The translations under genes and the position numbers were made by a program. Positions 1 through 20,042 of a stretch of 33,515 nt of DNA are shown piece after piece. Source of the DNA: Promethearchaeota archaeon (GTDB lineage Archaea > Asgardarchaeota > Lokiarchaeia > Sigyniarchaeales > SOKP01). The stretch is from assembly GCA_048938445.1 (NCBI GenBank), contig JBHLME010000044.1, positions 1 to 33,515 on the forward strand. The letters run 5' to 3'. The notes beneath the pieces are model-generated. The model saw only the letters and a list, made by a program, of their open reading frames with translations. It did no database searches and had not been told where the DNA came from. The first letter of the stretch is position 1; every line of letters starts with the position of its first letter.

Positions 1-956
1 TTAGTATTATCTATTATTAATTTCGATTTAGATTCTTTAATCAAGGTTTCAGTCATTTTAACATTAGGATCTTTTTCTACTCCAACAGTCATAGAAAAAC
101 CTTGAATAATATCTATAAGATTCCCTTCATATTTACGAGAAGAAAATGCTTTGACAGCTCGAAGAATCCATTCACTACTCATGCGGCGTCCAGCAATTTT
201 AAAATTATTAATTCCGATATCTTCATAATGGGATAAATCCTCTGGACGTACCCAACGTGCCTTGATTACTTCAGTTGGATTTGAAAATTTGATAGCACTG
301 CAATTTAGTATGCAAGAATCTAAATAATAGCCACCTAGTTGGTGAGAATATTGAGTGGAATGTCCGACAATATTATAATGATAATATCTAAAGGGACATT
401 GATATAAGCAACCGTCAGTTAAAAGTAGAACAATATTACATTTTACTGCTTTTTTAATTTTCTTCAAGGTCTTGAAATCGCGATTAATCATCACATCCGG
501 AGTAATCTCATCTGCACCCAGCGCTTCATAAAATTTAGCTCGATTTACACTATTGACATGAGCAATAGTAGAAACACGAATTTTCAATTTAGGAAACTGT
601 TCCTTAATGAGCTGAATTAAAAAGGGAATAGTCACGATTACATTATCTGTACCAATATCACTAATCCATTGAATATAGTTTAACAATTTTTTATGATACT
701 CCGCATCATATTCCATATTACCCATACAGGGGGCATTGAGTAAATAAGAGAATTTCATATTTTTCTCGTGAACCCTTTTTATATATTCCTCAATTTGTTC
801 TTCTGTAACTTCATTTAGCAAAAATGAAGGGCGTCCATGACCAACGAACGAGAATTTTCCTACCCCATATATATCTTTGACAGGGTACTTAGCTAATTTA
901 TCTATGAGTTCAAAGTCCCAATTTGTTGCAACACATAACTGGATTTTTATCACCAT
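1..956 (-). CDS. Peptidase U32 family protein (UbiU/UbiV/TrhP/RlhA superfamily Fe-S hydroxylase-like), 3' end truncated by window edge
   Basis: Absent from the ORF track (no stop in window). Manual translation from ATG at 956: MVIKIQLCVATNWDFELIDKL...GHGRP...FSYLLNAPCMGN...VTIPFLIQLIKEQFPKLKIRVSTIAHVNS...GADEITPDVMINRDF...GCLYQCPFRYYH...SCILNC...WVRPEDLSHYEDIGINNFKIAGR; open for 318 codons. The STxAxV, IxRD, WxRPED and FKIxGR motifs plus the Cys cluster fit U32. Confidence 0.88.
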   Translation of the reverse strand, partial: MVIKIQLCVATNWDFELIDKLAKYPVKDIYGVGKFSFVGHGRPSFLLNEVTEEQIEEYIKRVHEKNMKFSYLLNAPCMGNMEYDAEYHKKLLNYIQWISDIGTDNVIVTIPFLIQLIKEQFPKLKIRVSTIAHVNSVNRAKFYEALGADEITPDVMINRDFKTLKKIKKAVKCNIVLLLTDGCLYQCPFRYYHYNIVGHSTQYSHQLGGYYLDSCILNCSAIKFSNPTEVIKARWVRPEDLSHYEDIGINNFKIAGRRMSSEWILRAVKAFSSRKYEGNLIDIIQGFSMTVGVEKDPNVKMTETLIKESKSKLIIDNT

Positions 957-986
957 TATCTATTTTTAAGAATCTTCTATATTTAC

Positions 987-1376
987 TCATTTTTGAATTG
1001 TTTTAGTATGGGCTTTTGCATTAAGCGGCAATAATGGAGCACAAGCCATTAATTTACTCATATCGCCTTCAACTACATAAGTTCCCGCCATTGTTGCTTG
1101 GATGGGATCAGATTCACCAGAATTAACTTTTTTAATAGTGTCAAAATCTGTTTTATGGATGATTTTTGGGGTATCATCTCCTGAATATTCACCCATTCCC
1201 CATCTCATCTTGTCTTTTTCAACAAATTGCCAGTAATTCATCTCAGGTCTATCAGTTATTTCATATTGAAAAACTAGTGGCGCGATGGGTTCTAATAATG
1301 GAGCTAAATCTGGTAGCTCATTATAGGCTTTCATGAAACGTGTAAGATATGCTTCCCATTCTGCTTTTGTATCCAT
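987..1376 (-). CDS. SCP2 sterol/lipid-binding domain protein (UbiT/UbiJ-like fold)
   Basis: C-terminal SGESDPIQATMAGTYVVEGD matches the SCP2 signature (G.xDP..A.M.G...vEGD). Start placed at ATG 1376 because GGAGGT lies just upstream; the track starts at 1394. Confidence 0.8.
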   Translation of the reverse strand: MDTKAEWEAYLTRFMKAYNELPDLAPLLEPIAPLVFQYEITDRPEMNYWQFVEKDKMRWGMGEYSGDDTPKIIHKTDFDTIKKVNSGESDPIQATMAGTYVVEGDMSKLMACAPLLPLNAKAHTKTIQK

Positions 1377-1626
1377 TTTATTTTTTACCTCCATTCCTTT
1401 TTGGAATTGTGAATAATTTTCAATAATTATTGGATCTTTAATATCTAATCATTTATCTTTTACTTTCTTAGCTATTAATTCTATACCATAAAATAATGAT
1501 ATAATATAACTAATATCTTCATTATTTATGAAGCGTAATAGTTCAATATTATCTTCAATCAAGAAGTTCATACTTTACGTTTACCCTATTTCAATTTTTT
1601 AGTAAAATATCATAAAAAAATATTTT

Positions 1627-2799
1627 TTAAACATAATAATCAATTCCAGCTTTACAGCCCATTAATAGAAAGTCTGCCATAGTTCCATTATAATCATTTT
1701 CAATCTTGTAATAAAGACCATTTTGCGTGAAAGTAACTCCCCAGATAAACTTTTTTTTTTCACTTTGAAGTGGAGTTTTATCAACAAACTTTTTTATGAT
1801 TGGATGCAAATGTACTGGAACCTCACTATAATGGTCGCATGTTATGCCAAAACATAGACGTTCGATTCTCTCTGAATCCCAACTAAAAGTATAATTAAGA
1901 TGCGCAGCATCAATACATCCTTCCATAACCTCTTTAGAAGCTATTTCAAATCCTAAATCTTCCACAAGTGCTACACAATTCTCGTAAGCGGCTTTTGAGG
2001 GTCTCTGAAGCATGAAATAGATATTAGTCGTATAATTAGAGAAATCAAAAGCAAAAAGACTGAATATATTCAATCCATGTTTATCGAAGTAATCCTTGTA
2101 TTTTCTCATGCTATTTGGGATATATTTCATTGAGAAGATTGGGTCAATCGTTCCTGGAACGACAAAGGGCCAGATTTTTGATAATCCAATCCTAGCGTCT
2201 ATATCAACTCCATAACCCATTATATGAAAAGTTTCTTGTACTTCTCTCATCATTTTATGAATGGGGTGTCCATTTTTTTCAATTAAACCTTCATTAATAG
2301 CAGTTGTATAAGGATCTGGATCATGAATATGCATCAATTCCACATATCTTACTGAAACATCTCTTTTTTCGACTGGCTTGGTCGTTGTTCTGATTGATAC
2401 AGGGGATCCTATATAGAATTGACTATAAAGTTTTAATGCTCTCCATATAGCCTCATCATTGCATTTTATTCCTGTAATTTCACAAAGCTTCTCTATGTCT
2501 TTAACCAGCTGATCAAGATTTGTATTGCATTTGAAATTGGAGTCTACTTTAGGTAAGTATCTATCGTAAGGAATCCCAAAAGATTCAAGATCCTCAATCA
2601 TCGTTGGTTGAAAGGCTGGGGGTGTTACTTCAAACAATGCAACAACGAGATCTACCTCTGCTACCATTTTTCCCTTTCGTTCTGCGCATTTTTTTTCGGC
2701 TGCTTCAAGAAGTGCTGGTTTTACTACGGGTCTTACCATTTCTGGAATTTTTGAAACCATTCCTTCAAATAAATCTTTAATTTCTCGTTGCCATTCCAT
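1627..2799 (-). CDS. ABBA-type aromatic prenyltransferase (PTase_Orf2; CloQ/NphB/AmbP-like) fused to an N-terminal DUF2621/PCP_red-like helical domain
   Basis: PT-barrel motifs in the expected order: IRTTTK, VRY, DPY, GHP, YGVDIDARIGLSKIW, HGL, D-x5-NIYF, TFSWDSERIERLCF, VPVHLHPIIKKF, YYKIENDYNGTM. The first 82 aa are shared with three neighbouring proteins. Confidence 0.88.
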   Translation of the reverse strand: MEWQREIKDLFEGMVSKIPEMVRPVVKPALLEAAEKKCAERKGKMVAEVDLVVALFEVTPPAFQPTMIEDLESFGIPYDRYLPKVDSNFKCNTNLDQLVKDIEKLCEITGIKCNDEAIWRALKLYSQFYIGSPVSIRTTTKPVEKRDVSVRYVELMHIHDPDPYTTAINEGLIEKNGHPIHKMMREVQETFHIMGYGVDIDARIGLSKIWPFVVPGTIDPIFSMKYIPNSMRKYKDYFDKHGLNIFSLFAFDFSNYTTNIYFMLQRPSKAAYENCVALVEDLGFEIASKEVMEGCIDAAHLNYTFSWDSERIERLCFGITCDHYSEVPVHLHPIIKKFVDKTPLQSEKKKFIWGVTFTQNGLYYKIENDYNGTMADFLLMGCKAGIDYYV

Positions 2800-2915
2800 T
2801 TTATATTAAACCTGCTAATAATCTTCATTTATTTTATTTTTTAAAATCGTTTTATTTGACATTTACTCTTTTTAATTTTTCTGTAACATTGATTAATTTA
2901 TTTATATTAAACCAT

Positions 2916-4085
2916 TTATTTTACTTCCAATCCTGCTTGTGCTCCCATCGATAATAGTTCTATCATACTCTCTGTATAATCATTTTCAACCTTGAAGAAA
3001 AGACCTTCACGAGTGAAAGTTATGCTATAGATAAATTTTTGTATTCCAGTAATGGTTGGTATATTTTCAACAAATTTCTTTATTAATGGATGAAAATTTA
3101 CTGGAACCTGCCTCTTTTCATGGCATCCAATTCCAAAGCAAATACGCTCAACTCTATCTGTATCCCAGCTGAAAGTATAGTAGATCGTCAGGGCATTGCA
3201 GCATTTATTCATAACTTCGGGCGAAGATAATTCAAAACCTAGTTCCTTGAGCAAATTTCCATATTTTTCAGGGGTAGCCTTAGATGGATCCTTAATCATG
3301 AAGTAGACATTGATGGTATTATTCAAAAAATCAAGACCAAATACACTAAAAACGTTAAGTCCATGTCTTGTGAAATAATCTTTGTGTTTCTTGATACTGC
3401 TTGGGATTGTTGACATTGAATAAACAGGTTCAAATGGACCTGGGACAATGAATGGCCAGATTTTTGATAATCCCTTCCTTACGTCTAAATCTACGCCCCA
3501 GCCTAATATTTCGAAAGTGGATATGATCTCATTGAACATCATGTGGATTGGCTCCCCATTCTTTTCGATCAAATCCTCATTAATCGCTGTCGTGTAAGGA
3601 TCTGGATTATGGGGAATCATATGCTCTAAATAACGCACCGAAATGTCTCTTTTTTCTTTTGGTTTTGTTGTTGTTCGAATAGTGACTGTCGAACCAGTAT
3701 AAAAATCCTTGTAGGCATTTAATACCTTCCAAATCGCTTTTTCATCGCAATTTACTTCGATAAGTTCCCCGATTTTTAAGATTTGTTCAACCAATTGTTT
3801 TAAATCTGTATTAAATTTATATGTACATTTTATTTTTGCGAGATATTTATCGAGATCAACACCTAAACGGATTAAATCTCCTTTCATCATATCTTGAAAA
3901 GCTGGTGGTGTTACTTCAAACATTGCAATAACGAGATCCACCTCAGCTACAGCGTTTCCATTTCGCTCCATACATTTTTTTTCAGCGGCTTCACGAACAA
4001 CAGGACCAACTATTGGTCTAACTGTTTCTGGAGTTCCAGCCACAATTTCTTCATAAAGTGTTTTCACTTTTGGTTGCCATTCCAT
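2916..4085 (-). CDS. ABBA-type aromatic prenyltransferase paralog 2 with the same N-terminal module
   Basis: Collinear paralog of 1627..2799 (IRTTTKP, DPDPYTTAINE vs NPDPYTTAINE, GLSKIWPF, YTFSWD, ERICF, KVENDY). Start reassigned to ATG 4085 (MEWQPK, GAGGT upstream); the track start at 4229 overlaps the upstream gene. Confidence 0.88.
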   Translation of the reverse strand: MEWQPKVKTLYEEIVAGTPETVRPIVGPVVREAAEKKCMERNGNAVAEVDLVIAMFEVTPPAFQDMMKGDLIRLGVDLDKYLAKIKCTYKFNTDLKQLVEQILKIGELIEVNCDEKAIWKVLNAYKDFYTGSTVTIRTTTKPKEKRDISVRYLEHMIPHNPDPYTTAINEDLIEKNGEPIHMMFNEIISTFEILGWGVDLDVRKGLSKIWPFIVPGPFEPVYSMSTIPSSIKKHKDYFTRHGLNVFSVFGLDFLNNTINVYFMIKDPSKATPEKYGNLLKELGFELSSPEVMNKCCNALTIYYTFSWDTDRVERICFGIGCHEKRQVPVNFHPLIKKFVENIPTITGIQKFIYSITFTREGLFFKVENDYTESMIELLSMGAQAGLEVK

Positions 4086-4128
4086 TTTCCTTTTTACCTC
4101 CTTTATCAATTTTCTTTTAATTTTTATT

Positions 4129-5541
4129 TCAGTTTTGATATTTAGCAAATTGAATTTGGCCCATTTCGTTAAATCCTTCTGGATTATTAAGGCCAATTCC
4201 CGGTGCGAACCATCTAGGATTGCTTTCACAATATTCTCTTACTATTTTAAATAGGTCCATTTCTTTGATCTTAGGAGAGATATAAAATTTAGGTTTGAGC
4301 AATTTTTCTTCATTCGAAATTATACCATCTCTTTCAGCAATTAATTGGAGAGGTGTATTAGGGTAGATCCTCATTCCAATAAAAATAACTACATCATTAT
4401 CTCCTTCCCACACCTCTCCCCTATAATTCTCTACAGCTTCTAAACGATTAAATGAAGCTCGTACGGTTTCAAGAGTTTCGCCCGGCCCTCCTATAATAAC
4501 ATGAATTAATTGCTCAATTTCTAACTCAATACATTTCATTGATGTAAGGATAGCATCATCTGGAGTTCTATTTTCCTTAATATTTTTCAACATTTCTTCC
4601 GATAAGGATTCAAAACCCGTATCCAGATGAGTAGCACCGCTTTCTTTCATGAGAGGCAATAAATCAACGAATTGCTTATTTGGATCGTAATTTGCCCCCC
4701 ATTTTAATTCGAATTTACGTTTTATAATTTCTTGGCATATCTCTTTTAGATATTTGTAATTTAAATTGAGAACACCATCAACAAAAAAAATATTTTTAAT
4801 TCCTAAATTATTTACAATGAAATCAAGTTCATCAGCTATTTTTTCGGGAGATCGATATCGAACGGTTGAACCTTCTATATATCTATAACTACAGTAGATG
4901 CATTTATGAGGACAACCTCGTTTTGTTTGAATATTTCCCCATATGGCACCTGTTTTATTCATACAATAGATATATTCATCATTATCCATCAACTGCCTGG
5001 CGGGGATTGGCAAATCATCTAAATTTTCCACGCGCCATGGTGTTCTTTGATGATAATTTCCCTTTCCATCTATAAAACAAATACCTTTTTCTATTTTTCT
5101 CGGATCATTATCATTCTTAAGATATTTCAAAATTTCAGCAAAAACGTATTCGCCATCACCAATAACACCAATATCGTGGTTTAAATCATATAGAATTTCT
5201 TCTGAAAAAATTGAGAAGCCAGCACCACCTAAAACTATTGGAATTTCAGGTTCTGCAATCTCTTTAATATATTGAATGATACGTTTTGTGGGTAAGTAAA
5301 AAAATAAATTTGCAGGATAAGTTGTTGAATCAATATTACGAATAGAAATACCAATTAAATGAGGATTAAAATCATCTATTGCTTTTGAAATATCTTTTTT
5401 GGAATCATTACTTAGAGTTAAATCCCTTAACATTACTTCATGTCCCTGAGAAAGAAGATAGGAAGCTAAATATGCTTCTCCTATAGGCGGGACCATGACA
5501 TGAACTAATTCTCGACTTCCAGAAAATATTAACACTCGCAT
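4129..5541 (-). CDS. B12-binding domain radical SAM enzyme (class B methyltransferase-like; resembles the lipid-biosynthesis B12/rSAM subgroup)
   Basis: PPIG, GISIRNID, LGGAGFS and GDGE in the B12 domain; TKRGCPHKCIYC; MRIYPNTPL; C-terminal LLKPKFYISP. ATG 5541 preferred over GTG 5550. Confidence 0.88.
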   Translation of the reverse strand: MRVLIFSGSRELVHVMVPPIGEAYLASYLLSQGHEVMLRDLTLSNDSKKDISKAIDDFNPHLIGISIRNIDSTTYPANLFFYLPTKRIIQYIKEIAEPEIPIVLGGAGFSIFSEEILYDLNHDIGVIGDGEYVFAEILKYLKNDNDPRKIEKGICFIDGKGNYHQRTPWRVENLDDLPIPARQLMDNDEYIYCMNKTGAIWGNIQTKRGCPHKCIYCSYRYIEGSTVRYRSPEKIADELDFIVNNLGIKNIFFVDGVLNLNYKYLKEICQEIIKRKFELKWGANYDPNKQFVDLLPLMKESGATHLDTGFESLSEEMLKNIKENRTPDDAILTSMKCIELEIEQLIHVIIGGPGETLETVRASFNRLEAVENYRGEVWEGDNDVVIFIGMRIYPNTPLQLIAERDGIISNEEKLLKPKFYISPKIKEMDLFKIVREYCESNPRWFAPGIGLNNPEGFNEMGQIQFAKYQN

Positions 5542-5586
5542 TATATTCACATCTTGATTGTTTGGAATTTAATACCCTTTTATTAT

Positions 5587-6981
5587 TCATTCAATTATTA
5601 ATTCTTCTCGAGAAGATTCTACCTCATGTTCATGATCATTTTCATGCCAGCAATACGAAAATGAACCAAAAATATCACCAGTTTCACATTCAGCATGTAC
5701 ACGGCAACCACCACCACAATAATTAAGATGATGACAAGATGCACATTTTCCAGTACGCTTCTTCCTATCACGGATATCTTTAAAAAGCTGGGAGTTTAAT
5801 ACATCTTCAAATTTATCTACTAAAGCATTACCAAGTGTTGTTTTCGTTGGATAACCACATGGATAAATCGTACCATCCACGCCGACACCCATCATTGTCC
5901 TGCAAGCCAAACATCCTACTCCCCATTCAATTGAGGCTAATTCTTTATCATCTTTTGGCCATTCCATGAAAGGCGTCATTTCATAAATTTCATAAATAGG
6001 TAAAATACCTGCTTCACCCTGCCTGATTGTTTCAATAGCATGCCTATATTTAAAATCATAAAGTTTTTTGTATTCTTCTTGACTTAAACCAATTTCATCC
6101 CAATATTCAGCTGCTCGATTTTGTTTAACCACTGCCCTAAAAAATGTTTCTGCGCCCCATTTTTCTGATAAAGCTCTAAGTTTATCTAACTCATTAATGT
6201 TTTGCTTCATTATGGTTATTGATGTACATACAAATAAACCAAATTTCAAACAATTTTTTATTGCCTTCTCAGCATATTCTAATGAATTAGAGAATCCACG
6301 AATTTCATCATTTTTCTTTGGATCAGCACTTTCAAAACTGACAAATACATGACTCAATCCATTTTCTTTGGACATTTTAGCGAAATTCTCATCAAATCTT
6401 ACTCCATTAGTGATTATAGAATGGATATACCCCCTTTCTTTACAAAATTTCATAATGTCGCTAATATCTTCACGTAAAGTAGGTTCACCTCCGAACCATA
6501 TGTAGCATCCGTGTTTTCCCTGTTTTTGCAATCCTGTTTCCAAATTTTCTATAATTTGACACCATTCTTCCGTAGAAAGCTCGGGTCGAGGAACTTGGTC
6601 ATCTGCGGCACAATGTAGGCATTTCATATTGCATCTATCAGTAAGATACATCGCAAAATGTACATTACCTGGATGGAAGGCTTTAATTATACTCTCCCAA
6701 GTAACCTTGATTCGATCCAATATCTCTTTGAGTTCAATATATCTCTCAACATCTACTCCTAATGATGTTAAATCTTCAACCATCGTTGGTTTAAATGCTT
6801 CAGGGGTTACATCAAATATCCCTGTTATTAAATCGGCTTCATTAATATAGGAACCATTACGTTCATTGCATTTTTTTTCTGCTGCCTTAATTAACATCGG
6901 TTTTACAGAAGTACGTATTGCTTCTGGAATTTTTTCTACAATATTTCCAAATAATTCTTCAGTTTCTTTTTCCCAATCCAT
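5587..6981 (-). CDS. Radical SAM/SPASM-domain enzyme with the shared N-terminal module
   Basis: CNMKCLHC, GGEP and ITNG; SPASM motif GCLAC...DGTIYPC...KCASCHHLNYCGGGCR...YCW. Confidence 0.9.
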   Translation of the reverse strand: MDWEKETEELFGNIVEKIPEAIRTSVKPMLIKAAEKKCNERNGSYINEADLITGIFDVTPEAFKPTMVEDLTSLGVDVERYIELKEILDRIKVTWESIIKAFHPGNVHFAMYLTDRCNMKCLHCAADDQVPRPELSTEEWCQIIENLETGLQKQGKHGCYIWFGGEPTLREDISDIMKFCKERGYIHSIITNGVRFDENFAKMSKENGLSHVFVSFESADPKKNDEIRGFSNSLEYAEKAIKNCLKFGLFVCTSITIMKQNINELDKLRALSEKWGAETFFRAVVKQNRAAEYWDEIGLSQEEYKKLYDFKYRHAIETIRQGEAGILPIYEIYEMTPFMEWPKDDKELASIEWGVGCLACRTMMGVGVDGTIYPCGYPTKTTLGNALVDKFEDVLNSQLFKDIRDRKKRTGKCASCHHLNYCGGGCRVHAECETGDIFGSFSYCWHENDHEHEVESSREELIIE

Positions 6982-6993
6982 AAATTCTCACTT

Positions 6994-8361
6994 TTATTTA
7001 CAATTTTCATGTATATGGTCATCTTCATGCCAACAGAAAGGAAGAGATGCTAGAAAATCTCCTGTTTCGTTTTCTGCATGACATCTACAACCACCACCAC
7101 ATAATTCAAGGTGATGACAAGACGCGCAGCGCCCCTTTATTTTTCTATCCCTAATAGCTTTGAACATTTCAGATTCCATTATTTCATTGAAATCTTGCTT
7201 CAGAACATTACCTAAGGTTATCTGGGATGGATAATCACAAGGAAAGAAATCTCCATTGACATCAATGCCAGAGACTGAACGACATGCTTGGCATCCTACA
7301 CCCCATTCTAATGCAGTTCGTTCCTCATCATTGAGAGGGCATTCCATGAAAGGTACCATATCATAAATAAGGAATTTATGAATGCCGCTAACTTTCCCTT
7401 TTCTTATTGCATCAATAATTCGACCATATTTGAAATTATAAAATTGTCGATATTGATCAAGATCTAATCCAATTTCATCCCAATTTATATCAGCAGATCG
7501 TTGCTTAATGATAGCTCTGAAATAAGGTATCACACCCATAGATTCTAATCTATCTTTTATTTCATTTAACTCATCAAAATTATCTTTCTGAACTGTTGCT
7601 GTACAAACGGTAAGATGGCCATATTTCAATGATAATTCAATAGCTTTCTCAGCTGCTTCATAAGCTTTCGGAACGCCTCTAATCTTCGCAGCTCTTTCAG
7701 GATAAATACTATCATAGCTAATAAAGACATGACTCATCTTAACATCTGCACATAATTTCGCTAGATCCTCATCAAAAAGCATACCATTTGTAGAAACAGC
7801 TTGATAATATCCTTTTTCACCACAATATCTTATTAAATCTCTAAGCTCTTTGCGAAGTGTAGGTTCCCCCCCAAACCATATATAACAACCTCTCCTACCA
7901 CGTTTTCGTAATGTCTGTTCAACATTTTCGATGATCTGAATCCATTGTTCTTTTGATAATTCTGGACGGGGTTTCAACACTGAAGCTCCACAATGTTGGC
8001 ATTTCTGGTTGCATCGATCAGTTAGATACATTGTGAAATGATACACTCCGGGGAGAAAGGCTGCACCAACATCATCCCATGAACGAGCATGAGCTTTCAT
8101 AATTTCTGATAACTTTATATATCGGTCAGTATCTATTCCTAGGTTTTTCAAATCATTGACTACGGTTGGTTTAAATGCCTCAGGTGTTATCTCAAATAAT
8201 GCGGACATCAAATCGTCTTTACTTACAAATCGAGAATTCCTAAGCCTTGCGGTTTTTTCCGCAGTTTCACGCAACATCTGTTTAACCGCATTACGAAACG
8301 TTTCAGGTACCTGATCCGTGATGTTCCCATACATTTGTTCAATTTCATTATTCCATTCCAT
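6994..8361 (-). CDS. Radical SAM/SPASM-domain enzyme paralog with the shared N-terminal module
   Basis: CNQKCQHC, GGEP and STNG; SPASM motif GCQAC...NGDFFPC...RCASCHHLELCGGGCR...FCW; collinear with 5587..6981. Confidence 0.9.
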   Translation of the reverse strand: MEWNNEIEQMYGNITDQVPETFRNAVKQMLRETAEKTARLRNSRFVSKDDLMSALFEITPEAFKPTVVNDLKNLGIDTDRYIKLSEIMKAHARSWDDVGAAFLPGVYHFTMYLTDRCNQKCQHCGASVLKPRPELSKEQWIQIIENVEQTLRKRGRRGCYIWFGGEPTLRKELRDLIRYCGEKGYYQAVSTNGMLFDEDLAKLCADVKMSHVFISYDSIYPERAAKIRGVPKAYEAAEKAIELSLKYGHLTVCTATVQKDNFDELNEIKDRLESMGVIPYFRAIIKQRSADINWDEIGLDLDQYRQFYNFKYGRIIDAIRKGKVSGIHKFLIYDMVPFMECPLNDEERTALEWGVGCQACRSVSGIDVNGDFFPCDYPSQITLGNVLKQDFNEIMESEMFKAIRDRKIKGRCASCHHLELCGGGCRCHAENETGDFLASLPFCWHEDDHIHENCK

Positions 8362-8465
8362 TTTTTACATCTTATATTGATTTTTTAAATATATATTAAG
8401 AGATAAGTTATTTTTAAGTATAAATAACAAAATTAATCTAATATCGTAATTCATACAAAATTTTA

Positions 8466-9203
8466 TCAATTAATTCCCTCCCATTGGTAATAATCGTAAA
8501 AATCAGTAAAAATATTAATTTCGGGATGGGGATAAGGATTTTTTGAACGAAAAATCCAAAATTTTTCAAAAAGAGCATAATAACGGGAAAATACAAGATT
8601 TTTATAGCAATAACTTAAGGTGAGCTTAGATTCTCTGTGAAAAATTCTATTTATAATGCTGATACTTCTATATCTTCTTCTTTCCAGAGTAATATAAAAA
8701 CCATCAATTCTTTCATTTTTTCTACTATTTCTTTTAATAACATCTAAACGTTTATCATCGAGATAATATCTTAATTCATCCTTTACTCCAAATATTAAAT
8801 CTAGATCTTGATACTGTGCATCGAATTTTCCTTTAGTTCCAAGAAAATATGTTCCCATATAAATAAGTAATCGATCTTCTTCATTTAAGAATGCACTTTT
8901 AACATAATGATAAAAAAGGGTATCAAGATAACAGAAGAAATTAAAAATTATGACGATATCAATCAATTGACCCATGCTAAATTGGATTATTTGATATTCT
9001 TTCGGTATAAACTCTAAGATATTAATATATGGTAAAGAAGGAAAGAAAATTGATTTGCCAGAAGTAAAATATTCCTTTAATAAAGAAGAAAAAAACGGAA
9101 TATCTCCTAAAAACATGTTAATAAATGTAATTGGGAAACAAGAGGAAATAAAAACCAATATCAGAATACATATTAAATTTTTGAGTTTTTTATCATTTTG
9201 CAC
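8466..9203 (-). CDS. Hypothetical membrane protein
   Basis: 245-aa ORF with two hydrophobic N-terminal segments and no recognised motif; GTG start. Confidence 0.55.
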   Translation of the reverse strand: MQNDKKLKNLICILILVFISSCFPITFINMFLGDIPFFSSLLKEYFTSGKSIFFPSLPYINILEFIPKEYQIIQFSMGQLIDIVIIFNFFCYLDTLFYHYVKSAFLNEEDRLLIYMGTYFLGTKGKFDAQYQDLDLIFGVKDELRYYLDDKRLDVIKRNSRKNERIDGFYITLERRRYRSISIINRIFHRESKLTLSYCYKNLVFSRYYALFEKFWIFRSKNPYPHPEINIFTDFYDYYQWEGIN

Positions 9204-9471: not shown

Positions 9472-10974
9472 TTAATTATCTTTCATTTTAGGTTTTTTCG
9501 AATCTGTGGTTAGAAGCATTGGTATTGTGCTTAAAAATAAAAGTTTATTCGCATTTTGAATAGAAGTTCCAGAAAAATGTTCCTTATCATAATTTATTAA
9601 ACTATAAAAATAAGATATTTTACTTCGTTTAAATGCTTCAGCAACTTCCAAAAATGAATTATATTTTAATTTTATCCCAAAACTCTCAGGAGATTCATGG
9701 GCAGGAGAACCAGGGAAAATATAATACGGCTCACTCATTATAGAAATTGGCTTAGAATTAGATTTTCCATATTTTAAAATACATTTAATTATAAAATTCC
9801 AATCTTTTACAATATCAATAAATTTTTGGAAAGGAAAGCCAATTGTTAACCAAATTCTTAATTTCATTCGTAATAAATTGGCATTTTTTATTAAGTCATT
9901 AATTTGACATTGAGGAAATTTAAATGTCGGATCACAAATTTTAGCTATTTTTTGATGAACTTTGGATGATAAAGTTCGAGGAGAAATACTAACTGATGAA
10001 TCTTTGTGATTGAAAGTTTCATGATAGATTTTCCACATTTCTTTAGGAAATGGTAAACGCCATATCTCTAAATCTCCTCCAATATCAAATTTTTCTTTTT
10101 GAATCAACCCAAATAATCTTTTCCAATATTTTAAATTAGCAGGATAGGTACCATGTCCGAAAAATATACTTGGAACCTTATAATTCTCGAGAATATTTCT
10201 GATATCTTCTAGTACTCTTTCTGGACTTCTGAGAATAACTTTATTGCGTCCTAATATATTTTGCTGAGCTCTCTGCCCTCCTCCACAGAACGGACAATTA
10301 AAAGGACAACCTCTTCCAACGGGTATAATACCAGAGATTCCCATAATCTTTCTACTCTGCTCAAAATAATATTTAGCATTTTTTAGTAATGATATATTTG
10401 TAAAGCTAAAATCATCTAATGTTTTTGCTGTATAGGAAATAGAATTAACTTTTATGTGTTTAGAGGAATCTCGATAAGATAAATTGGGAACCGAATCTAA
10501 AGGTTGATTTTTATTAATCTTTTGTATGTATTTTAAAAATGGAATTTCGCCCTCTCCCCTAATGACACCATCAATTGCTTTATAGTTTTTTAAAATTTCA
10601 TTATGATAATATGAAGCACTGTACCCCCCAAGAATCACTTTAGCACTGGGATTTAATTTTTTTACTAATCGAGCAACTTCAATTGCTCCATATGCATTAT
10701 GTATCCAATGTAAGTCTATTCCGCATATATTAAAATTAATATTTTTAAGATAGTCTGATATTGCCCAATTATGATTTAAATTCTGCTCTAAAGGATAATT
10801 AATAATTCTAACTCCAAAACCTTCTTTCTCAAGGACATCGCCAATAGCAAATAAACCCATTGGAATGAACATATACGAGCCCCGGGCAAATTTAGCGATT
10901 TTGCTATTAAAAGATTTTACAGTTCTAGGTGGATGAATTAAAATTACATCGTAGTTTTTCAAGATTACTGCCAA
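9472..10974 (-). CDS. B12-binding domain radical SAM protein (DLHW-motif subgroup)
   Basis: IPMG, GIDLHW, LGGYSAS, RGEGE and GRGCPFNCPFC motifs. Confidence 0.88.
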   Translation of the reverse strand: MAVILKNYDVILIHPPRTVKSFNSKIAKFARGSYMFIPMGLFAIGDVLEKEGFGVRIINYPLEQNLNHNWAISDYLKNINFNICGIDLHWIHNAYGAIEVARLVKKLNPSAKVILGGYSASYYHNEILKNYKAIDGVIRGEGEIPFLKYIQKINKNQPLDSVPNLSYRDSSKHIKVNSISYTAKTLDDFSFTNISLLKNAKYYFEQSRKIMGISGIIPVGRGCPFNCPFCGGGQRAQQNILGRNKVILRSPERVLEDIRNILENYKVPSIFFGHGTYPANLKYWKRLFGLIQKEKFDIGGDLEIWRLPFPKEMWKIYHETFNHKDSSVSISPRTLSSKVHQKIAKICDPTFKFPQCQINDLIKNANLLRMKLRIWLTIGFPFQKFIDIVKDWNFIIKCILKYGKSNSKPISIMSEPYYIFPGSPAHESPESFGIKLKYNSFLEVAEAFKRSKISYFYSLINYDKEHFSGTSIQNANKLLFLSTIPMLLTTDSKKPKMKDN

Positions 10975-11173: not shown

Positions 11174-12142
11174 ATGAATAATATGATAATTTTAGACGGA
11201 AATTTTTTCGATTTTTTGTTCATGATAGTTTTCCCTTTAGTACTACTCGGGTTACTTCTAATTATTTTTATAAGTGGACTATTTAAAAAAAAACCAAAAC
11301 AAGAACTTATGACTTTAGATGAATTTATAATGGATTGGCTTAAGGATCACGGACAAGCTCATAAATTGGAGGAACAGTTTGCTAAAATGAAAAAAGATCC
11401 TGCTGGAAAAATTTACATGCCGTTAACATATCATGGCGCAAAATTTGCCATAAGATGCGGTTTAACTCCAAATAAAGTATCTTATATTAATTTAATATTA
11501 TCATTTTTCATATTTTGGGCAGTAATAATGATAAGTAAAGGTCATACTTGTAATTTATTTTCTCAACAACCTTATTTTGGAGCTTGGTTTATTCCTCTTG
11601 CATTTTTAGCTTTATTTACAGGAATTATTGATGGAATCGATGGATCGATAGCTAGGTTATTGGATATAAAATCTAAAAGTGGTGCGTGGTTAGATAATGT
11701 GATTGACAGAATATGTGATATATTATTATTAGTTTGTTTAGTTCCCACTAGTTTTATGGTTGTTTCGATTTTAGGGTATAGGTTAGATTTTACATGGATC
11801 GTTTGGACAAATATTTTTTTAGTTTTTCTCTATGAATACATGAGAGCAAGACATGAAGGTTTAGGTCTGCATGAAGCAAAACCGTTTATTGGTGAAAGAA
11901 TAACGCGTTTTTTTCTAATATTTACATTTTTCTTGATTTACGGTATTTCGAGTTTTTTTGTATTGTTGACAAATTGGATTTATCCCTCTGCTACAAAAAT
12001 TTGGACGAATTCTCACATTGGAACAATAACATGGAATATGTTAATTTATCAAATAATCTTATTATTGATTATGGTTTTTTCATCAATTAAATTAGCCAGC
12101 TATAGTTTGAAAAATTTAAAAAGATTAGATCGTGGAGAATGA
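11174..12142 (+). CDS. CDP-alcohol phosphatidyltransferase family protein
   Basis: TPN motif plus DGIDGSIAR-x7-GAWLDNVIDRICD (canonical DxxDGxxAR...GxxLDxxxD); YMRAR and GERITR; multiple TM helices. Confidence 0.9.
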   Translation: MNNMIILDGNFFDFLFMIVFPLVLLGLLLIIFISGLFKKKPKQELMTLDEFIMDWLKDHGQAHKLEEQFAKMKKDPAGKIYMPLTYHGAKFAIRCGLTPNKVSYINLILSFFIFWAVIMISKGHTCNLFSQQPYFGAWFIPLAFLALFTGIIDGIDGSIARLLDIKSKSGAWLDNVIDRICDILLLVCLVPTSFMVVSILGYRLDFTWIVWTNIFLVFLYEYMRARHEGLGLHEAKPFIGERITRFFLIFTFFLIYGISSFFVLLTNWIYPSATKIWTNSHIGTITWNMLIYQIILLLIMVFSSIKLASYSLKNLKRLDRGE

Positions 12143-12311
12143 ATGAGGATTAAAAAATAATTAATGTAAAAAGGGGTATAACAAAATTAATTTTAAAGGA
12201 TTTTTATATTTAGTTTTACTGGTAATCTTTTTTGTTCTATTACACTTATATTTTCCACCTTATTTATCATCAGGAACAAAGACCGCAATAGATACATTTA
12301 TTGCTGACCCT

Positions 12312-13535
12312 TTGACTTATTGGTGGTTTATATTTCCCTTAATTGGTTTAATTGTATGGTTGATATTGATTATATATTATGGAAAATACTTTTTAGCTTC
12401 ATTTGGTCGTGGTTATAGAACTAAAAAGCCCTATTATCCAAAAATAAGTATAATGATTGCCTCTAAAAATGAAAGAATATTATTAGAAAGAACCTTAAAT
12501 TCGATTGTTGAATCTGATTTTCCTAAAGAAAATATCCAATTAATTATAATAACCAGTGGATCGACAGACGATACTACAGAATTTTGTTATAATTTTGCTA
12601 AGAAACATAACACAATAGATATAGAAGTTTTATCTGATGATCTTCCCAAAAAGGGAAAACCTCCTGCAATGAATTATGGTCTAAAATTCGTAAAAAATGA
12701 AATTATTGTTCTTTATGATTCTGGTTGTATTTTACAAAAAGATACATTAAAGAATTTAATATCCCGATTTCAAAAGAAAAAAATTAATGCGGTTATTGGA
12801 CCTGTTTTAGTTACAAATTGGAAGACTAATATATTGACTAGAGCGATATTTCTTGATTATTCATTTTTATCGGGAGGAGGATTATTATTTGAAACAAAAA
12901 ATAGATTAGGTAAATCAGCTTTTTCATTTGGACGAAACTTTGCAGTAAGAACGGAATATCTAAAGAAATATGGTGGATTTAACGAAGATTCAACCACAGA
13001 AGACCTTTATCTTTCTGTGCTTTTAAATATGGATGGAATAAAAATTTACTTTTCTCCTAAAGCAAAAGTTTATGAACACGTACCTAGTACATGGAAGATT
13101 TTAGCAAAACAACGTGAACGATGGCTTGCAGGATATATTTTTGATATGCCACAATTAATGGCAATGGAAGGTGAAAAAAAGAACGGAAAATCAGTAATTA
13201 TTGATAGGAATATGACAATGACATTTTTAGGAAATATTGATTCTTGGATGCCTATATTTATTGGATTAGCAATTTTATTTTTCATTATTGGAGAATTCTA
13301 CCTTCTTAGCTGGACCCTCGCCTGTTTATTCTTTCAATTTGGATTTTTGTTCAATGCTGTGCGAAAATATGGAGATAAACATTTCAGTATTTTGTTTTTG
13401 TGGCCATTATCCGGTTATATTCATCTTTATATGTTTTTACATCAGTTTAAACTTCCAAAAGAAATAAGTTGGGATAAAACTCCGATGCTTCTCGAGAAGC
13501 AAGAAGAAGAAATAATTGCTTTATCTTCTAAATAA
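12312..13535 (+). CDS. GT2 glycosyltransferase, cellulose-synthase-like membrane type
   Basis: STDDT, GKP, TED and QRERW (QxxRW) motifs, with TM helices at both ends. The true start may be upstream (see findings). Confidence 0.88.
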   Translation: MTYWWFIFPLIGLIVWLILIIYYGKYFLASFGRGYRTKKPYYPKISIMIASKNERILLERTLNSIVESDFPKENIQLIIITSGSTDDTTEFCYNFAKKHNTIDIEVLSDDLPKKGKPPAMNYGLKFVKNEIIVLYDSGCILQKDTLKNLISRFQKKKINAVIGPVLVTNWKTNILTRAIFLDYSFLSGGGLLFETKNRLGKSAFSFGRNFAVRTEYLKKYGGFNEDSTTEDLYLSVLLNMDGIKIYFSPKAKVYEHVPSTWKILAKQRERWLAGYIFDMPQLMAMEGEKKNGKSVIIDRNMTMTFLGNIDSWMPIFIGLAILFFIIGEFYLLSWTLACLFFQFGFLFNAVRKYGDKHFSILFLWPLSGYIHLYMFLHQFKLPKEISWDKTPMLLEKQEEEIIALSSK

Positions 13536-13631
13536 CTTTAAAATAAAAATTGATGAATTTTTTATTCTCAAAATTTATTAATATTTAGTATTTAAAATTA
13601 ATCAATACAGTTTTTTGTCGACGTAATTATT

Positions 13632-14936
13632 ATGGTGTTTTTAAAATTTCACGATCTTTTACCCGAAGAATTAAAAACAAAATATTTTGATTTTAAACCA
13701 TGTAATTATCCAAATGAAAAATTTTGTAAAGATTTATTAGAGCAAATAAAATTATCCTACAATAATTGTAAATATTATCAAGAAAATCTCTGTAAAAAAT
13801 TCAATTTTACGATTCCAGACTATTTAAATATCGATGATCTAGAAGCAATTCCATATATTCCGACAGAAACTTACAAAAAATCAGGAAATCGGACATTGCA
13901 ACTTTTAAAAACCACTCTTGATAATATTGCACTCTTTTCATGTTCCTCATCTACAACCGGCGATCCTTCAATAGTTCCTCGAACTTTGGAAGATTTTGAT
14001 CAATTACAGTATAATTCGATTAAAGCTTTTACTGATTTTTTTGGATGGAAAGATTTAATAGTAGGACCAAAAAAATGCGTAGTTTTTAATTTTTCACCTG
14101 ATCGATTACTAATGTCATTGATGGCAAAAAAAAATATTAAAGAATTTGAATATATAGATAAAACTCGCTATTTTACAGCATGCATGAATAAACCTTGGGA
14201 ATATTATGGGCATGAGGAATATATGGTAAAATTTAAGCATTTAAAATCAATTTGGAACGTTATTAAATCCTTTTCAATAAAAGCAGCGTTTATTTTAGAT
14301 GTAAGTAAAATGTTGAAAATGATCGAAAAAATTTTAAAGACTGGATCTTGGAAAAAAATGGAAGTAAATAAAATTTTACTTGGTGGAAGCCCACTTTTAA
14401 TGAATAATATGTTTAAAAAAAGATTATTAGAAGAAAATATATTTTATGACCTTGATGGTTTTGCTACTGTTGGATGCGGTGGTGGTGGATGGGAAGGAGT
14501 AAAAGGTGAAGCAAAATTGGATGCCGTTAATAAAGTTAAATTTATTGAATATTATGAACAAGTCTTTAATATCAAATCAAAAGATATAGCAGATATTTAT
14601 GCATTTACCGAAGGACCAACTCTTTTTGGGGGACATTGGTCTGAGAAGTACCAAGATTTTTTATTGCATTGTCCTGATACTTCCCGAATTATTGTGAGAG
14701 ATCTAAATAAATTAAAACCTATAGATAATGGTGAAGAAGGCTTATTAGAAGTAATTACACCTTATGGCGTCAACGGTACAATAAATCAAGCAGTCCTAGT
14801 TGATGATATTGTCGAGCTAATTTCAAAAAATAAGTGTTCAGAATGTGGCTATCAAGGAGCTACCTTTCGAATTCTAGGACGATTAAAAAATGCTCAAGGT
14901 AAAAGCTGTTCTTCTTTAATTAATTGGATCTACTAA
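13632..14936 (+). CDS. LuxE-like acyl-protein synthetase (ANL adenylate-forming superfamily)
   Basis: IPYIP, SSSTTGDPS P-loop, GGGGW, YAFTE, LVDD, CSECG, LGR and terminal GKSCS. Confidence 0.8.
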   Translation: MVFLKFHDLLPEELKTKYFDFKPCNYPNEKFCKDLLEQIKLSYNNCKYYQENLCKKFNFTIPDYLNIDDLEAIPYIPTETYKKSGNRTLQLLKTTLDNIALFSCSSSTTGDPSIVPRTLEDFDQLQYNSIKAFTDFFGWKDLIVGPKKCVVFNFSPDRLLMSLMAKKNIKEFEYIDKTRYFTACMNKPWEYYGHEEYMVKFKHLKSIWNVIKSFSIKAAFILDVSKMLKMIEKILKTGSWKKMEVNKILLGGSPLLMNNMFKKRLLEENIFYDLDGFATVGCGGGGWEGVKGEAKLDAVNKVKFIEYYEQVFNIKSKDIADIYAFTEGPTLFGGHWSEKYQDFLLHCPDTSRIIVRDLNKLKPIDNGEEGLLEVITPYGVNGTINQAVLVDDIVELISKNKCSECGYQGATFRILGRLKNAQGKSCSSLINWIY

Positions 14937-15006
14937 TGATTTTTTATTTTAATAAGATTAAAAATATAAAAATAACTACTAAGGTTAATTAAGGAGTATT
15001 CTTTTA

Positions 15007-16452
15007 ATGAAAATCAATCTTATTAATCCCGCACCTTCAAAAATTAAAGATGGACAGAATGAAACATTATTTTATGCTTCTTCTCCTCCGTTAGGATTAA
15101 TGTATCTTGCTACATATTTAAAAAATTCGGGTCATAAAATTTCTATTTTAGATCAAGCGGCTGTTAATTATGAGAATAGTGATGTTATTAACTGGGTTAA
15201 AAAAGGAGACCCAGATGTAGTAGGTTTTTCAATTTTATGTGCTTCTATAGAAAATGCGAAAATAATATCTAAAGCAATAAAAACCTGGAATCCTAATCTG
15301 AACACCATTTTTGGGAATTATCTTGCAACATTTTACGCAAGAAAAATCTTAGAAAATTATGATTGGGTAGATATTTGCGTGCGAGGGGATGGTGAAACAA
15401 CTTTCTCAGAGCTTACGGAAAAGATAGAATTAAACAAAAATCTTAATGAAGTTGCTGGAATAACATATAAAAGTAACGGGAAAATTATAGAGAATAAGAA
15501 TCGACAGTTAATTAAAAATCTTGATATTTTACCATTCCCCGACCGAAAATTAGTTCCAAATAACTATAAAAATCGTATTGGGGGAATTGATGTATCACCA
15601 CGAAAATTTACAACAATGGTTACTTCAAGAGGATGCCCTTTTGGATGCGATTTCTGCGCGTGCACAGCATTCTCTCAAGGGCTTTGGAGGACTCGATCAG
15701 TAAATAATATATTTGAAGAGATATGCGAATTAGCGAATCTAGGTTTTAAAGAAATCCTTTTCGTTGATGATAATTTTACATTTAATAGAAAAAGAATAGT
15801 CGAATTATGCAACAAAATAATGAAGGAAAAAATGGATATGGTATTTGTATGTGATGGAAGAGTAAATAATAGCTCCATTAATTTCCTGAGAACTATGAAA
15901 AAAGCAAATTTTGAAATCCTCATGTATGGAATAGAAAGTAGTTCTCAAAGAATATTAAATTATTACAATAAAAAAATAACACCTCAAATGAGTGAAACTG
16001 CTGTAAAAAATGCACGTAAGGCGGGTTTTAAGATGATTGTTGGGTCATTTATGATAGGTGGGCTTGATGAAACATATGCTGAGGCAATTAATACTCTTAA
16101 ATTTATTTCAAAACTCGATATTGATTTTCCTCATATAATTTTTACGCGAGCATTACCAGGAACTCAGCTTTTCAATAATTTAATCAAAAGAAAAATAATT
16201 GATGAAAATAAATATTGGGAAAGAGGAGTAGATCTTATAGATTTACCTGAAGCAAAAATGGATCGACAAGTAATTTATAAAATAATAAAAGAACAGTTTC
16301 ATTTAAATTTCTTCAGACCTAAATATTTGATTAAATCTCTTTTACGAACATTAATGAGTAGATACAGGCAAGAAATGTATTTAAATCATCTAAATTTTCA
16401 TGATTTAGATAAATTTATTAAGTTGATAAATAATCCTCCTGATTTATTTTAA
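15007..16452 (+). CDS. B12-binding radical SAM enzyme (class B; BchE/HpnP/GrsA-like superfamily)
   Basis: PPLGL, RGDGE, LPFPDR, SRGCPFGCDFC, VDDNF, GIES and PGT motifs. Confidence 0.92.
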   Translation: MKINLINPAPSKIKDGQNETLFYASSPPLGLMYLATYLKNSGHKISILDQAAVNYENSDVINWVKKGDPDVVGFSILCASIENAKIISKAIKTWNPNLNTIFGNYLATFYARKILENYDWVDICVRGDGETTFSELTEKIELNKNLNEVAGITYKSNGKIIENKNRQLIKNLDILPFPDRKLVPNNYKNRIGGIDVSPRKFTTMVTSRGCPFGCDFCACTAFSQGLWRTRSVNNIFEEICELANLGFKEILFVDDNFTFNRKRIVELCNKIMKEKMDMVFVCDGRVNNSSINFLRTMKKANFEILMYGIESSSQRILNYYNKKITPQMSETAVKNARKAGFKMIVGSFMIGGLDETYAEAINTLKFISKLDIDFPHIIFTRALPGTQLFNNLIKRKIIDENKYWERGVDLIDLPEAKMDRQVIYKIIKEQFHLNFFRPKYLIKSLLRTLMSRYRQEMYLNHLNFHDLDKFIKLINNPPDLF

Positions 16453-16474
16453 TCTAAAATTTATGGAGTGATAT

Positions 16475-17986: not shown

Positions 17987-18015
17987 TTAAAAATACAATA
18001 GGATATATCAAAAAA

Positions 18016-19478: not shown

Positions 19479-20042
19479 TTAGAAAATAATAACGGCCATA
19501 ATAATGCTCACTATTAGTGCTATTGAATTTGTGATAATCCCAAAAATCCCAAATATACTTCCAGCTTTTTCGATGCTATTTATTTGTTCCAAATTTTCTG
19601 CCTTCCTACTCTCTACTCTAGATAAAATTCCTAATGTTAATCCAAATATATGAAGGCATATGACTAGTATTAGTAATATGAATAATATTCTTTTAATCTC
19701 GCTTTCACTATAATTAAAGTAAGAAAATTGGAACATTGATCGTAAAAATATATATCTCATAGCATAAGAACCAAAATAATAAGCGAATATTCCTATCCCA
19801 ATAGAAATTAATGCAAATCCTAAACACTTTTTTGAATGTGGCCCCGGCACTCCTTTTTCTTGCTTGTAACCTGGAAAATAATCAGGCGCGGGAAGTGGTT
19901 TAGTTCTAGGTATTGCTAAGTATTGAGTACTATCAGTTCTTGATTGAGATGTTTTAGATATAATTGTGAGATCATTTCCACAGTGAACACAAAACCTCTG
20001 ATTTGGCACTTTCAATTCTTTTCCACAATTAGGACAATACAT
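19479..20042 (-). CDS. Zinc-ribbon-domain membrane protein
   Basis: MYCPNCG...RFCVHCG, a Pro-rich linker and three TM helices. Confidence 0.8.
   Translation of the reverse strand: MYCPNCGKELKVPNQRFCVHCGNDLTIISKTSQSRTDSTQYLAIPRTKPLPAPDYFPGYKQEKGVPGPHSKKCLGFALISIGIGIFAYYFGSYAMRYIFLRSMFQFSYFNYSESEIKRILFILLILVICLHIFGLTLGILSRVESRKAENLEQINSIEKAGSIFGIFGIITNSIALIVSIIMAVIIF

Follow-up and report, generated by a model that had tools for sequence, protein, structure and literature searches.

What compound is worked on by a gene cluster that sets soluble ABBA aromatic prenyltransferases (PTs) beside three radical S-adenosylmethionine (SAM) enzymes, an SCP2-fold lipid-binding protein and a U32-family Fe-S protein? 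The question is raised by the left end of a 33,515-nucleotide stretch of DNA from a Promethearchaeota archaeon (contig JBHLME010000044.1; G000:C144:1-33515 in our numbering), the whole of which we call the window; given these coordinates, the left edge of the window is the end of the contig. The same genome has two copies of a conserved Asgard operon, window 1-9203 being one of them, and several of the operon's enzymes carry copies of one small domain, here called the adaptor. The answer that we favour, tentatively and with somewhat less than even confidence, is that the operon encodes a line of enzymes which tailor, without O2 and with SCP2 as chaperone, a hydrophobic small molecule of prenylated aromatic type. 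Below we present the genes, the domains that join them and their distribution, and weigh this answer against others.

An earlier reading of this DNA, made from the letters alone (the sequence-only reading), had described seven co-oriented genes cut at the left edge. The open reading frame (ORF) list bears this out, with seven ORFs on the minus strand within window 1-8361, the last of which, the U32 gene, ends at the contig end. The family named for every gene was right, all seven ORFs exceeding the curated Pfam cut-offs, and the gap lengths given were correct. The seven genes are real and not chance ORFs, but their limits had been drawn less well: PT1 starts at 4085 (MEWQ..., behind AAGGAGGT) and not at the GTG at 4229, the SCP2 gene probably starts at 1376, where an upstream GGAGGT motif would give a protein of 129 residues, and the unit is longer upstream than had been drawn. 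The start of the B12-binding radical SAM gene (B12-rSAM) may lie at 5541. From the contig end, the genes of the unit and its upstream neighbour are:

3..956, minus strand: U32-family Fe-S protein, candidate O2-independent hydroxylase (Peptidase_U32, 52.9 bits)
987..1394, probable start 1376, minus strand: SCP2-fold lipid-binding carrier (SCP2, 31.3 bits; cut-off 21.3)
1627..2799, minus strand: ABBA aromatic prenyltransferase PT2 (PTase_Orf2, 164.3 bits)
2916..4085, minus strand: ABBA aromatic prenyltransferase PT1 (PTase_Orf2, 169.7 bits)
4129..5550, minus strand: class B B12-radical SAM enzyme, candidate C-methylase (B12-binding, 59.8 bits; Radical_SAM, 78.1 bits)
5587..6981, minus strand: radical SAM/SPASM enzyme B (Radical_SAM, 82.1 bits; SPASM, 39.9 bits)
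6994..8361, minus strand: radical SAM/SPASM enzyme A (Radical_SAM, 71.1 bits; SPASM, 39.1 bits)
8365..8469, minus strand: small ORF of 34 codons with a TTG start, behind a GGGAGGG motif
8466..9203, minus strand: orphan membrane protein of 245 residues, without a Pfam or NCBIfam match
9472..10974, minus strand: upstream neighbour, a B12-binding radical SAM protein of TIGR04190-like type (Ta0216 family; TIGR04190, 265 bits; cut-off 500)

Most of the gaps are short: 12 nucleotides (nt) between the SPASM genes, 36-45 nt on one side of the B12-rSAM gene and 43 nt on the other, 30 nt between SCP2 and U32, 116 nt between PT1 and PT2, and 232-250 nt between PT2 and SCP2. Upstream, the unit extends to the orphan gene (8466-9203) and the small ORF coupled to it (8365-8469), and an AT-rich gap of 268 nt separates it from the Ta0216-like gene. 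The operon order is orphan, small ORF, SPASM-A, SPASM-B, B12-rSAM, PT (duplicated here), SCP2 and U32.

A first tie among these enzymes is one that the sequence-only reading had not seen, as it had not seen the upstream genes or the second cluster. About 85 residues at the N-termini of both SPASM enzymes and both PTs form a common domain, with 36-45% identity and 21 invariant columns in the four-sequence alignment. Its copies in the window are:

8086-8361, minus strand: adaptor of SPASM-A
6706-6981, minus strand: adaptor of SPASM-B
3810-4085, minus strand: adaptor of PT1
2524-2799, minus strand: adaptor of PT2

Full-length orthologues of the U32 protein, of about 470 residues, carry the adaptor at their C-terminal end (residues 396-455 in L025:11931-13349); the window's own U32 gene meets the contig end before that point. 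When the adaptor profile was run against the whole 4.6-Mb assembly, it found nine six-frame ORFs, four of them in the window and five in the second cluster. Among 1.84 billion representative proteins, 257 match it (E<=0.001), many of them free-standing and 80-100 residues long. A scan of 55 longer adaptor-bearing representatives gave 14 with PTase_Orf2, 13 with U32, 8 with radical SAM, 3 with SCP2 and 2 with PCP_red, together with one each of an HpaB phenol hydroxylase-like protein, a SAM methyltransferase, a PNPOx-like protein, a 2Fe-2S thioredoxin-like ferredoxin and LuxC. The arrangement is flexible: one protein joins LuxC, adaptor and SPASM in a single chain, one PT relative bears the adaptor at its C-terminus instead of its N-terminus, a chain of 1104 residues strings together PCP_red, SCP2-like, SCP2 and adaptor units, and in a Bacillota locus (L043) the adaptor is a 90-residue ORF of its own directly before the PT.

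Given this distribution, free-standing, fused to varied enzymes of the set and restricted within the genome, the adaptor is a module in its own right that is dedicated to these enzymes. In a phylum sample of 379 genomes at least 70% complete, the adaptor occurs in 45, including all 32 that have the PT, and the PT is found in none of the 334 adaptor-negative genomes. What the domain resembles is less clear. In Pfam it weakly matches the C-terminal half of DUF2621 (best E 2e-5, below the cut-off), its Atlas scores reach at most 0.80 and serve as leads only, and its profile found no related solved structure among PDB sequences (best E 0.027); the literature searched held no account of DUF2621/PCP_red function. 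If the adaptor does mark every enzyme of one pathway, this rare domain would serve as a handle for finding further members.

A second tie is provided by the paralogous cluster elsewhere in the genome (contig C17, locus L049), which is longer and whose genes are 68-75% identical to their orthologous partners in the window. Its order is orphan, SPASM, SPASM, B12-rSAM, a SPASM protein with SCP2 at its C-terminus, an SCP2-adaptor-PT fusion of 536 residues, a short U32-like protein, a U32-adaptor-SCP2 fusion of 684 residues and a U32-adaptor protein of 471 residues. Here and in other loci, therefore, SCP2 is fused to PT, to SPASM and to U32. By the classical argument from gene fusion, such joining of SCP2 to each of the three enzyme classes suggests that all three act on one SCP2-bound ligand. 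As a separate observation, the gene directly beside this cluster (L049:4645-5289, plus strand, which is G000:C17:24644-25288) encodes a 214-residue protein with a BAR domain (Pfam BAR, E 5e-11; also FAM92 and BAR_3), a membrane-curvature domain of eukaryote type.

Is the arrangement conserved beyond this genome? The sequence-only reading had staked its proposal on co-localisation elsewhere, and co-localisation proves to be strong. A scan of a one-genome-per-species collection, with ORFs labelled by BLAST, yielded 45 loci, all in metagenome-assembled genomes: 32 from Asgard or group-unlabelled archaea, one from Thermoplasmata and 12 from bacteria, among them Deferrimicrobium, Pseudobacteroides, Omnitrophota, Bacillota, Aminicenantes, Thermoanaerobaculia, Clostridia, Anaerolineae and Polyangiaceae. 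The canonical Asgard order is Ta0216-like B12-rSAM, orphan, SPASM-A, SPASM-B, B12-rSAM and PT, followed either by SCP2 and U32 or by three U32 paralogues. The cluster of L025 matches that of the window in gene order, and its proteins are 80-87% identical. Synteny was counted in 21 archaeal loci flanked by at least 5 kb of upstream and 3 kb of downstream sequence, the genes all lying on one strand. SPASM and the orphan protein are present in all 21, U32 in 20, B12-rSAM in 17 and the Ta0216-like B12-rSAM in 15; a separate SCP2 ORF occurs in 14, and in the remaining loci SCP2 is fused in a long U32 protein. Clustering of the 548 unlabelled ORFs of the 45 loci revealed no further neighbour family in more than 8 loci. 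Across genomes, in turn, the system is accessory and patchy: the PT occurs in 32 of the 379 phylum genomes, in 13 of 90 when only high-quality genomes are counted, and in one of four other genomes of the window's genus.

The PTase_Orf2 (PF11468) matches of the PTs span positions 2-283 of the 287 in the profile, at scores far above the cut-off of 22 bits, and in PT2 the catalytic barrel (1627-2520) follows the adaptor. Thirteen PDB sequences match (E 1.4e-36 to 2.6e-06). The nearest solved relatives are the indole PTs 5ynt, AmbP3 and AmbP1, the phenazine PT 4ee6 and NphB (E 1e-36 to 1e-21, residues ~96-375), all of which prenylate aromatic small molecules. The likeness to AmbP1, AmbP3, 5ynt, EpzP (4ee6), NphB (1zb6) and CloQ extends across the whole barrel (E 1e-36 to 1e-6). 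Unlike these known ABBA enzymes, however, the PTs described here have an adaptor of ~85-90 residues fused to them, in some forms with SCP2 as well and reaching 536 residues, and they are found in radical-enzyme operons of anaerobes rather than in the natural-product clusters of actinomycetes and cyanobacteria.

The named relatives of PT2 are mostly Asgard proteins, in line with the Asgard-like host that had been suggested from the sequence, and most of the scanned loci come from Asgard or group-unlabelled archaea. PT2 has 132 relatives at E<=0.001; the best 120 of the 132 are 40-94% identical to it, most of them exactly 390 residues long, and the named ones among the matches listed are nearly all from Promethearchaeota, Hod-, Hermod-, Thor- and Odinarchaeota metagenome-assembled genomes. 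In a midpoint-rooted FastTree phylogeny, made without reading support values and used solely for naming clades, the Asgard PTs form one clade with three subclades, and the bacterial and Thermoplasmata sequences form the other together with that of L034. PT1, which is 56% identical to PT2, belongs to a second clade with the proteins of L025 and L004; a tandem PT1-PT2 pair is found only in the window and in L004.

The SCP2 and U32 proteins would fit a hydrophobic ligand and hydroxylation without O2, respectively, and here the comparison is with UbiT, UbiU and UbiV. The SCP2 protein is well conserved (78% mean column identity and 38 invariant columns in 14 orthologues). The window retains the first 318 residues of the U32 protein, cut by the contig end, and the U32 profile match covers only positions 2-65 of 233. 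In 14 sequences C183, C187 and C219 are invariant and C77 nearly so (at least 90%). By the part of the UbiT-UbiU-UbiV study consulted (Pelosi et al. 2019, PMC6747719), the likeness to that system is fourfold: an SCP2 gene stands beside genes for U32-family Fe-S proteins, each U32 protein has four conserved cysteines able to hold a 4Fe-4S cluster, U32 paralogues are grouped (in threes, both in the C17 cluster and in L037), and the SCP2-U32 fusions seen here recall the ubiT-ubiU fusion reported from Zymomonas. The analogy with UbiT/UbiU/UbiV had already been drawn from the sequence of the window, and it gains support from the fusions of SCP2 to U32, SPASM and PT in the sister clusters.

There are differences too. 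The cysteine spacing here is C77...C183-x3-C187-x31-C219, whereas that given for UbiU/UbiV in the same excerpts is CX6CX15CX3/4C (PMC6747719), and the U32 proteins here have an extra cysteine cluster besides the adaptor domain. Orthology finds no support in NCBIfam, where U32 matches TrhP best, with 34.8 bits (cut-off 534), UbiU scores 18.7 (cut-off 440), and SCP2 has no match at all. The hosts also differ, being Asgards and anaerobic non-proteobacterial bacteria, whereas more than one of ubiT, ubiU and ubiV was found, so far as the portion of Pelosi et al. (2019, PMC6747719) consulted states, in no genome outside three proteobacterial classes and Acidithiobacillia. Judged by their sequences, the SCP2-U32 pairs described here are a different, non-orthologous lineage.

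How might these proteins act together? In the scheme that we favour, which is a proposal in each chemical step, in the docking of the adaptor and in the nature of the product, the ABBA PTs would add one or two short prenyl groups, probably from dimethylallyl diphosphate (DMAPP), to an aromatic acceptor. The acceptor would probably be derived from the shikimate pathway; chorismate synthase is present in the window's genome. The resulting greasy intermediate would be held by SCP2, free or fused, and the enzymes would reach it via the ~85-residue, putatively helical adaptor, forming a soluble metabolon like the UbiJ/UbiT-based Ubi complex. The B12-rSAM would methylate a carbon, the two SPASM enzymes would carry out radical steps of a type that we leave unspecified, and the U32 Fe-S protein would hydroxylate without O2, probably with prephenate, which NCBIfam names as the co-substrate of the U32 hydroxylase TrhP. 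The parallel with the Ubi metabolon would be that, as described in the relevant passages of PMC6747719 for UbiJ (an SCP2 protein) and UbiK, soluble enzymes act on a lipid intermediate in an SCP2 cavity; unlike that complex, the link here would be an enzyme-fused adaptor or a direct SCP2 fusion, with no known UbiK-like partner.

Some bacterial loci have neighbours that suit this scheme. In Pseudobacteroides (L037), three U32 genes, a HEAT-repeat protein, a TIGR04072-like B12-rSAM (180 bits), a SPASM gene, an adaptor-less PT and two more SPASM genes are followed by genes for isopentenyl diphosphate (IPP) isomerase (168.8 bits; cut-off 127) and a bifunctional 3-deoxy-D-arabino-heptulosonate 7-phosphate (DAHP) synthase/chorismate mutase (429.5 bits; cut-off 279). 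In two Bacillota loci, L041 and L043, an IPP isomerase gene lies directly 3' of the PT (138.6 and 165.2 bits). Such neighbours would supply DMAPP, plus chorismate and prephenate as the source of an aromatic ring, and they fit both aromatic-ring prenylation and prephenate-dependent hydroxylation.

Several findings nevertheless weigh against a prenylated aromatic product. The IPP isomerase and chorismate mutase neighbours are confined to those three bacterial loci, none recurring in Asgard loci. The closest family of the B12-rSAM is TIGR04072, named for lipid biosynthesis, and genes for lipid head groups (CDP-alcohol phosphatidyltransferase or a family 2 glycosyltransferase, GT2) or LuxE flank 10 of the 21 well-flanked loci. 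A peptide substrate could be encoded by the small ORF that is conserved immediately upstream of the SPASM genes. Of the 13 adaptor-positive, PT-negative genomes, three were inspected. G196 has Ta0216, orphan, SPASM-A, SCP2 and U32; G164 has orphan, SCP2, U32 and B12-rSAM, without any SPASM gene; and G248 has Ta0216, orphan, a distant SPASM gene, SCP2, two unassigned genes and U32. From these contents, the minimal Asgard core is orphan, SCP2 and U32, with PT, SPASM and B12-rSAM as variable additions. Since the three inspected clusters have neither the PT nor a full enzyme set, the core can do without the PT, and there may be a substrate before any prenylation.

If the substrate does pre-exist, it might be a membrane isoprenoid lipid such as archaeol, a glycerol dialkyl glycerol tetraether (GDGT) or another polyprenyl compound. 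The orphan protein and SCP2 would then extract the lipid, U32 would hydroxylate it, the B12-rSAM would methylate it, the SPASM enzymes would cross-link or cyclise it, and the PTs would contribute an optional alkylation. We rate lipid tailoring as rather unlikely, but the PT-less core variants, the lipid-family B12-rSAM and the nearby head-group genes give it some weight. The B12-rSAM has the class B layout, an N-terminal B12-binding domain (PF02310) followed by a radical SAM core (PF04055), and in NCBIfam it scores highest with TIGR04072 ('lipid biosynthesis B12-binding/radical SAM protein'; 280 bits) and next with BzaD (193 bits). It shares its domain order with both; its scores, however, fall under their cut-offs (360 and 450), and its gene context is different. 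Similarly, SPASM-B finds PqqE and, as its best match in the PDB, the tetraether synthase GDGT-MAS, but the latter match covers the radical SAM core and omits the SPASM part. LuxE and further B12-rSAM genes lie near the unit in the same 10 loci and in the window, and the relative that joins LuxC, adaptor and SPASM could be read in the same sense; yet the lipid genes are on the opposite strand, and 11 of the 21 well-flanked loci, like the bacterial loci examined, lack them. Against lipid tailoring stand also the known ABBA PTs, which use aromatic acceptors, and the bacterial hosts with ester lipids, which retain the PT+SPASM(+U32) module.

The radical SAM enzymes raise the further possibility of tetrapyrrole modification, in which the SPASM enzymes would correspond to AhbC/AhbD/NirJ, the neighbouring B12-rSAM proteins to BchE and the adaptor to the PCP_red domain of protochlorophyllide reductase. 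All three radical SAM enzymes of the unit have the CxxxCxxC motif, and the SPASM enzymes share with AhbC/AhbD/NirJ, MftC and PqqE a radical SAM core followed by a cysteine-rich SPASM domain. The top NCBIfam matches of both are indeed tetrapyrrole enzymes, in the range of 120-137 bits: AhbD (137.1) and NirJ2 (127) for SPASM-B, ahead of MftC (114.7; cut-off 265), and NirJ1 (130.5) and AhbD (126.8) for SPASM-A. PCP_red, moreover, is matched by two of the 55 adaptor proteins scanned. However, the scores lie far under the cut-offs for these tetrapyrrole families, 500 for AhbD and 650 for NirJ1, and none makes either protein an equivalog of AhbD, NirJ, MftC or PqqE (91.5 bits against 381 for the last); overall, scores of 85-137 bits stand against cut-offs of 265-650, and the N-terminal domain is the adaptor and not a PqqD-type element. 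We know of no tetrapyrrole role for ABBA PTs or SCP2. The genome, at 96.5% completeness, yielded neither aminolevulinate dehydratase (ALAD) nor porphobilinogen (PBG) deaminase, and for that reason we consider a tetrapyrrole substrate extremely improbable.

The beginning of the operon has to be considered next. The orphan protein is always the first gene of the unit. Its N-terminal ~110 residues, with two hydrophobic segments, are conserved, and its C-terminal half evolves fast, as judged by alignment and hydropathy; it has no relative in Pfam, NCBIfam or Atlas. Separately, a 66-residue ORF with two hydrophobic segments in Pseudobacteroides (L037:13895-14095, plus strand), between the last SPASM gene and that for IPP isomerase, may be a counterpart of the Asgard orphan. 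The last codons of the orphan gene overlap a conserved GGAGG-type motif, and a start codon with a small ORF of 14-37 codons fills the gap to SPASM-A. Motif, start and small ORF were found together in 18 of the 28 archaeal loci examined, counting the window and the C17 cluster. In 16 of these 18, the open stretch extends beyond that reached by 90% of mononucleotide shuffles (median 0.03), a test slightly biased by the preselection of loci with an ORF of at least 12 codons. In the window, the orphan stop overlaps the TTG of the small ORF, whose own stop lies 3 nt before the ATG of SPASM-A; ATGA overlaps occur at the junctions of L006, L008, L020 and L025, and in 5 of the 18 loci the small ORF continues in frame into SPASM-A. 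No small ORF was seen at the four readable bacterial or non-canonical junctions (L034, L037, L038 and L044). In the Thermoplasmata locus (L032), a run of N at 8880-8975 lies exactly where the N-terminal part of the first SPASM gene should be, so that the junction is masked.

The small ORF could be a coupling upstream ORF, a micro-protein or a precursor peptide. The last of these would make the product a ribosomally synthesised peptide that is post-translationally modified (RiPP), or a peptide-derived cofactor: the adaptor would recognise the leader, as PqqD or another RiPP recognition element (RRE) does, the SPASM enzymes would introduce cross-links, the PTs would prenylate tyrosine or tryptophan, and U32 and the B12-rSAM would add further decorations. 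A radical SAM/SPASM protein with an extra N-terminal domain of ~100 residues has the usual layout of a RiPP maturase, and PqqD, like the adaptor with its free-standing forms and its separate ORF before the PT of L043, occurs both free-standing and fused. MftC and PqqE also appear among the NCBIfam matches. It is because of the small ORF, placed behind a strong GGAGG and translationally coupled to SPASM-A, that we give a peptide product any room, and even so we hold it to be unlikely. Pfam gave no PqqD/RRE match at E<=0.01, the adaptor resembling DUF2621/PCP_red instead. The encoded peptide is a short one with many Lys and Asn residues, and its conservation is poor past the first few positions; it is missing at the four junctions named above, and its in-frame run into SPASM-A in some loci fits a coupling upstream ORF equally well. 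Neighbour clustering uncovered no conserved protease or exporter nearby, a cluster variant without SPASM exists (G164), and the SCP2 fusions indicate a lipid-like ligand.

If, then, an SCP2-bound prenylated aromatic compound is still the answer to be preferred, could it be a quinone or some other electron carrier, as the sequence-only reading had entertained? Nothing here shows it. NuoH was not found in this genome, nor is a ubiquinone pathway evident there; the quinone-type genes present (three of the UbiA family, one UbiD and three for flavoproteins) are none of them adjacent to each other. The restriction of the PT to 32 of 379 genomes and the three related clusters without it point the same way. 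A respiratory role is not indicated, and a respiratory quinone is not shown. The boldest form of the idea, a quinone- or phenazine-like membrane electron carrier, would posit a new family of O2-independently made prenylated, hydroxylated and methylated aromatic redox lipids of Asgards and sediment anaerobes, built on SCP2 by enzymes that dock via the adaptor as the small-molecule counterpart of an RRE; we think it decidedly unlikely. To our knowledge, no biosynthetic route to a membrane electron carrier has been established for Asgard archaea, and a new lipid-soluble cofactor, if real, would alter how metabolism is modelled in the archaea most closely related to eukaryotes.

What is new here is a conserved combination of known enzyme families together with a new adaptor domain. 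The sequence-only reading had known of no described cluster of this make-up, and a full-text literature search likewise found no published description of the cluster or of the adaptor domain; one candidate paper, PMC13635244, was unrelated to the cluster in the part consulted. Should the prenylated-aromatic scheme be correct, the cluster would represent a second, independent SCP2 and U32 solution to the O2-free hydroxylation of greasy aromatics, outside Proteobacteria and tied to soluble ABBA PTs and three radical SAM enzymes. Were the product no more than a specialised metabolite or a modified lipid, its enzymes would still be candidates for new radical chemistry.

Family annotation of the window reached to ~23.6 kb, and a few features beyond the unit may be recorded here. 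A divergent block on the plus strand, at 11174-19455, contains genes for a CDP-alcohol phosphatidyltransferase, a GT2 glycosyltransferase, a LuxE-like adenylating enzyme and three tandem B12-radical SAM proteins like BchE/HpnJ; as 10 of the 21 loci have parts of this block next to the cluster, it may be a lipid-modification island. At 19479-20640, on the minus strand, adjacent genes encode proteins of 187 and 170 residues, each with an N-terminal zinc ribbon and a remainder without family match. Finally, a radical SAM gene at 21763-22794 on the plus strand, followed by a gene for an alpha/beta hydrolase, has prokaryotic viperin as its best NCBIfam match (66.5 bits; cut-off 180).

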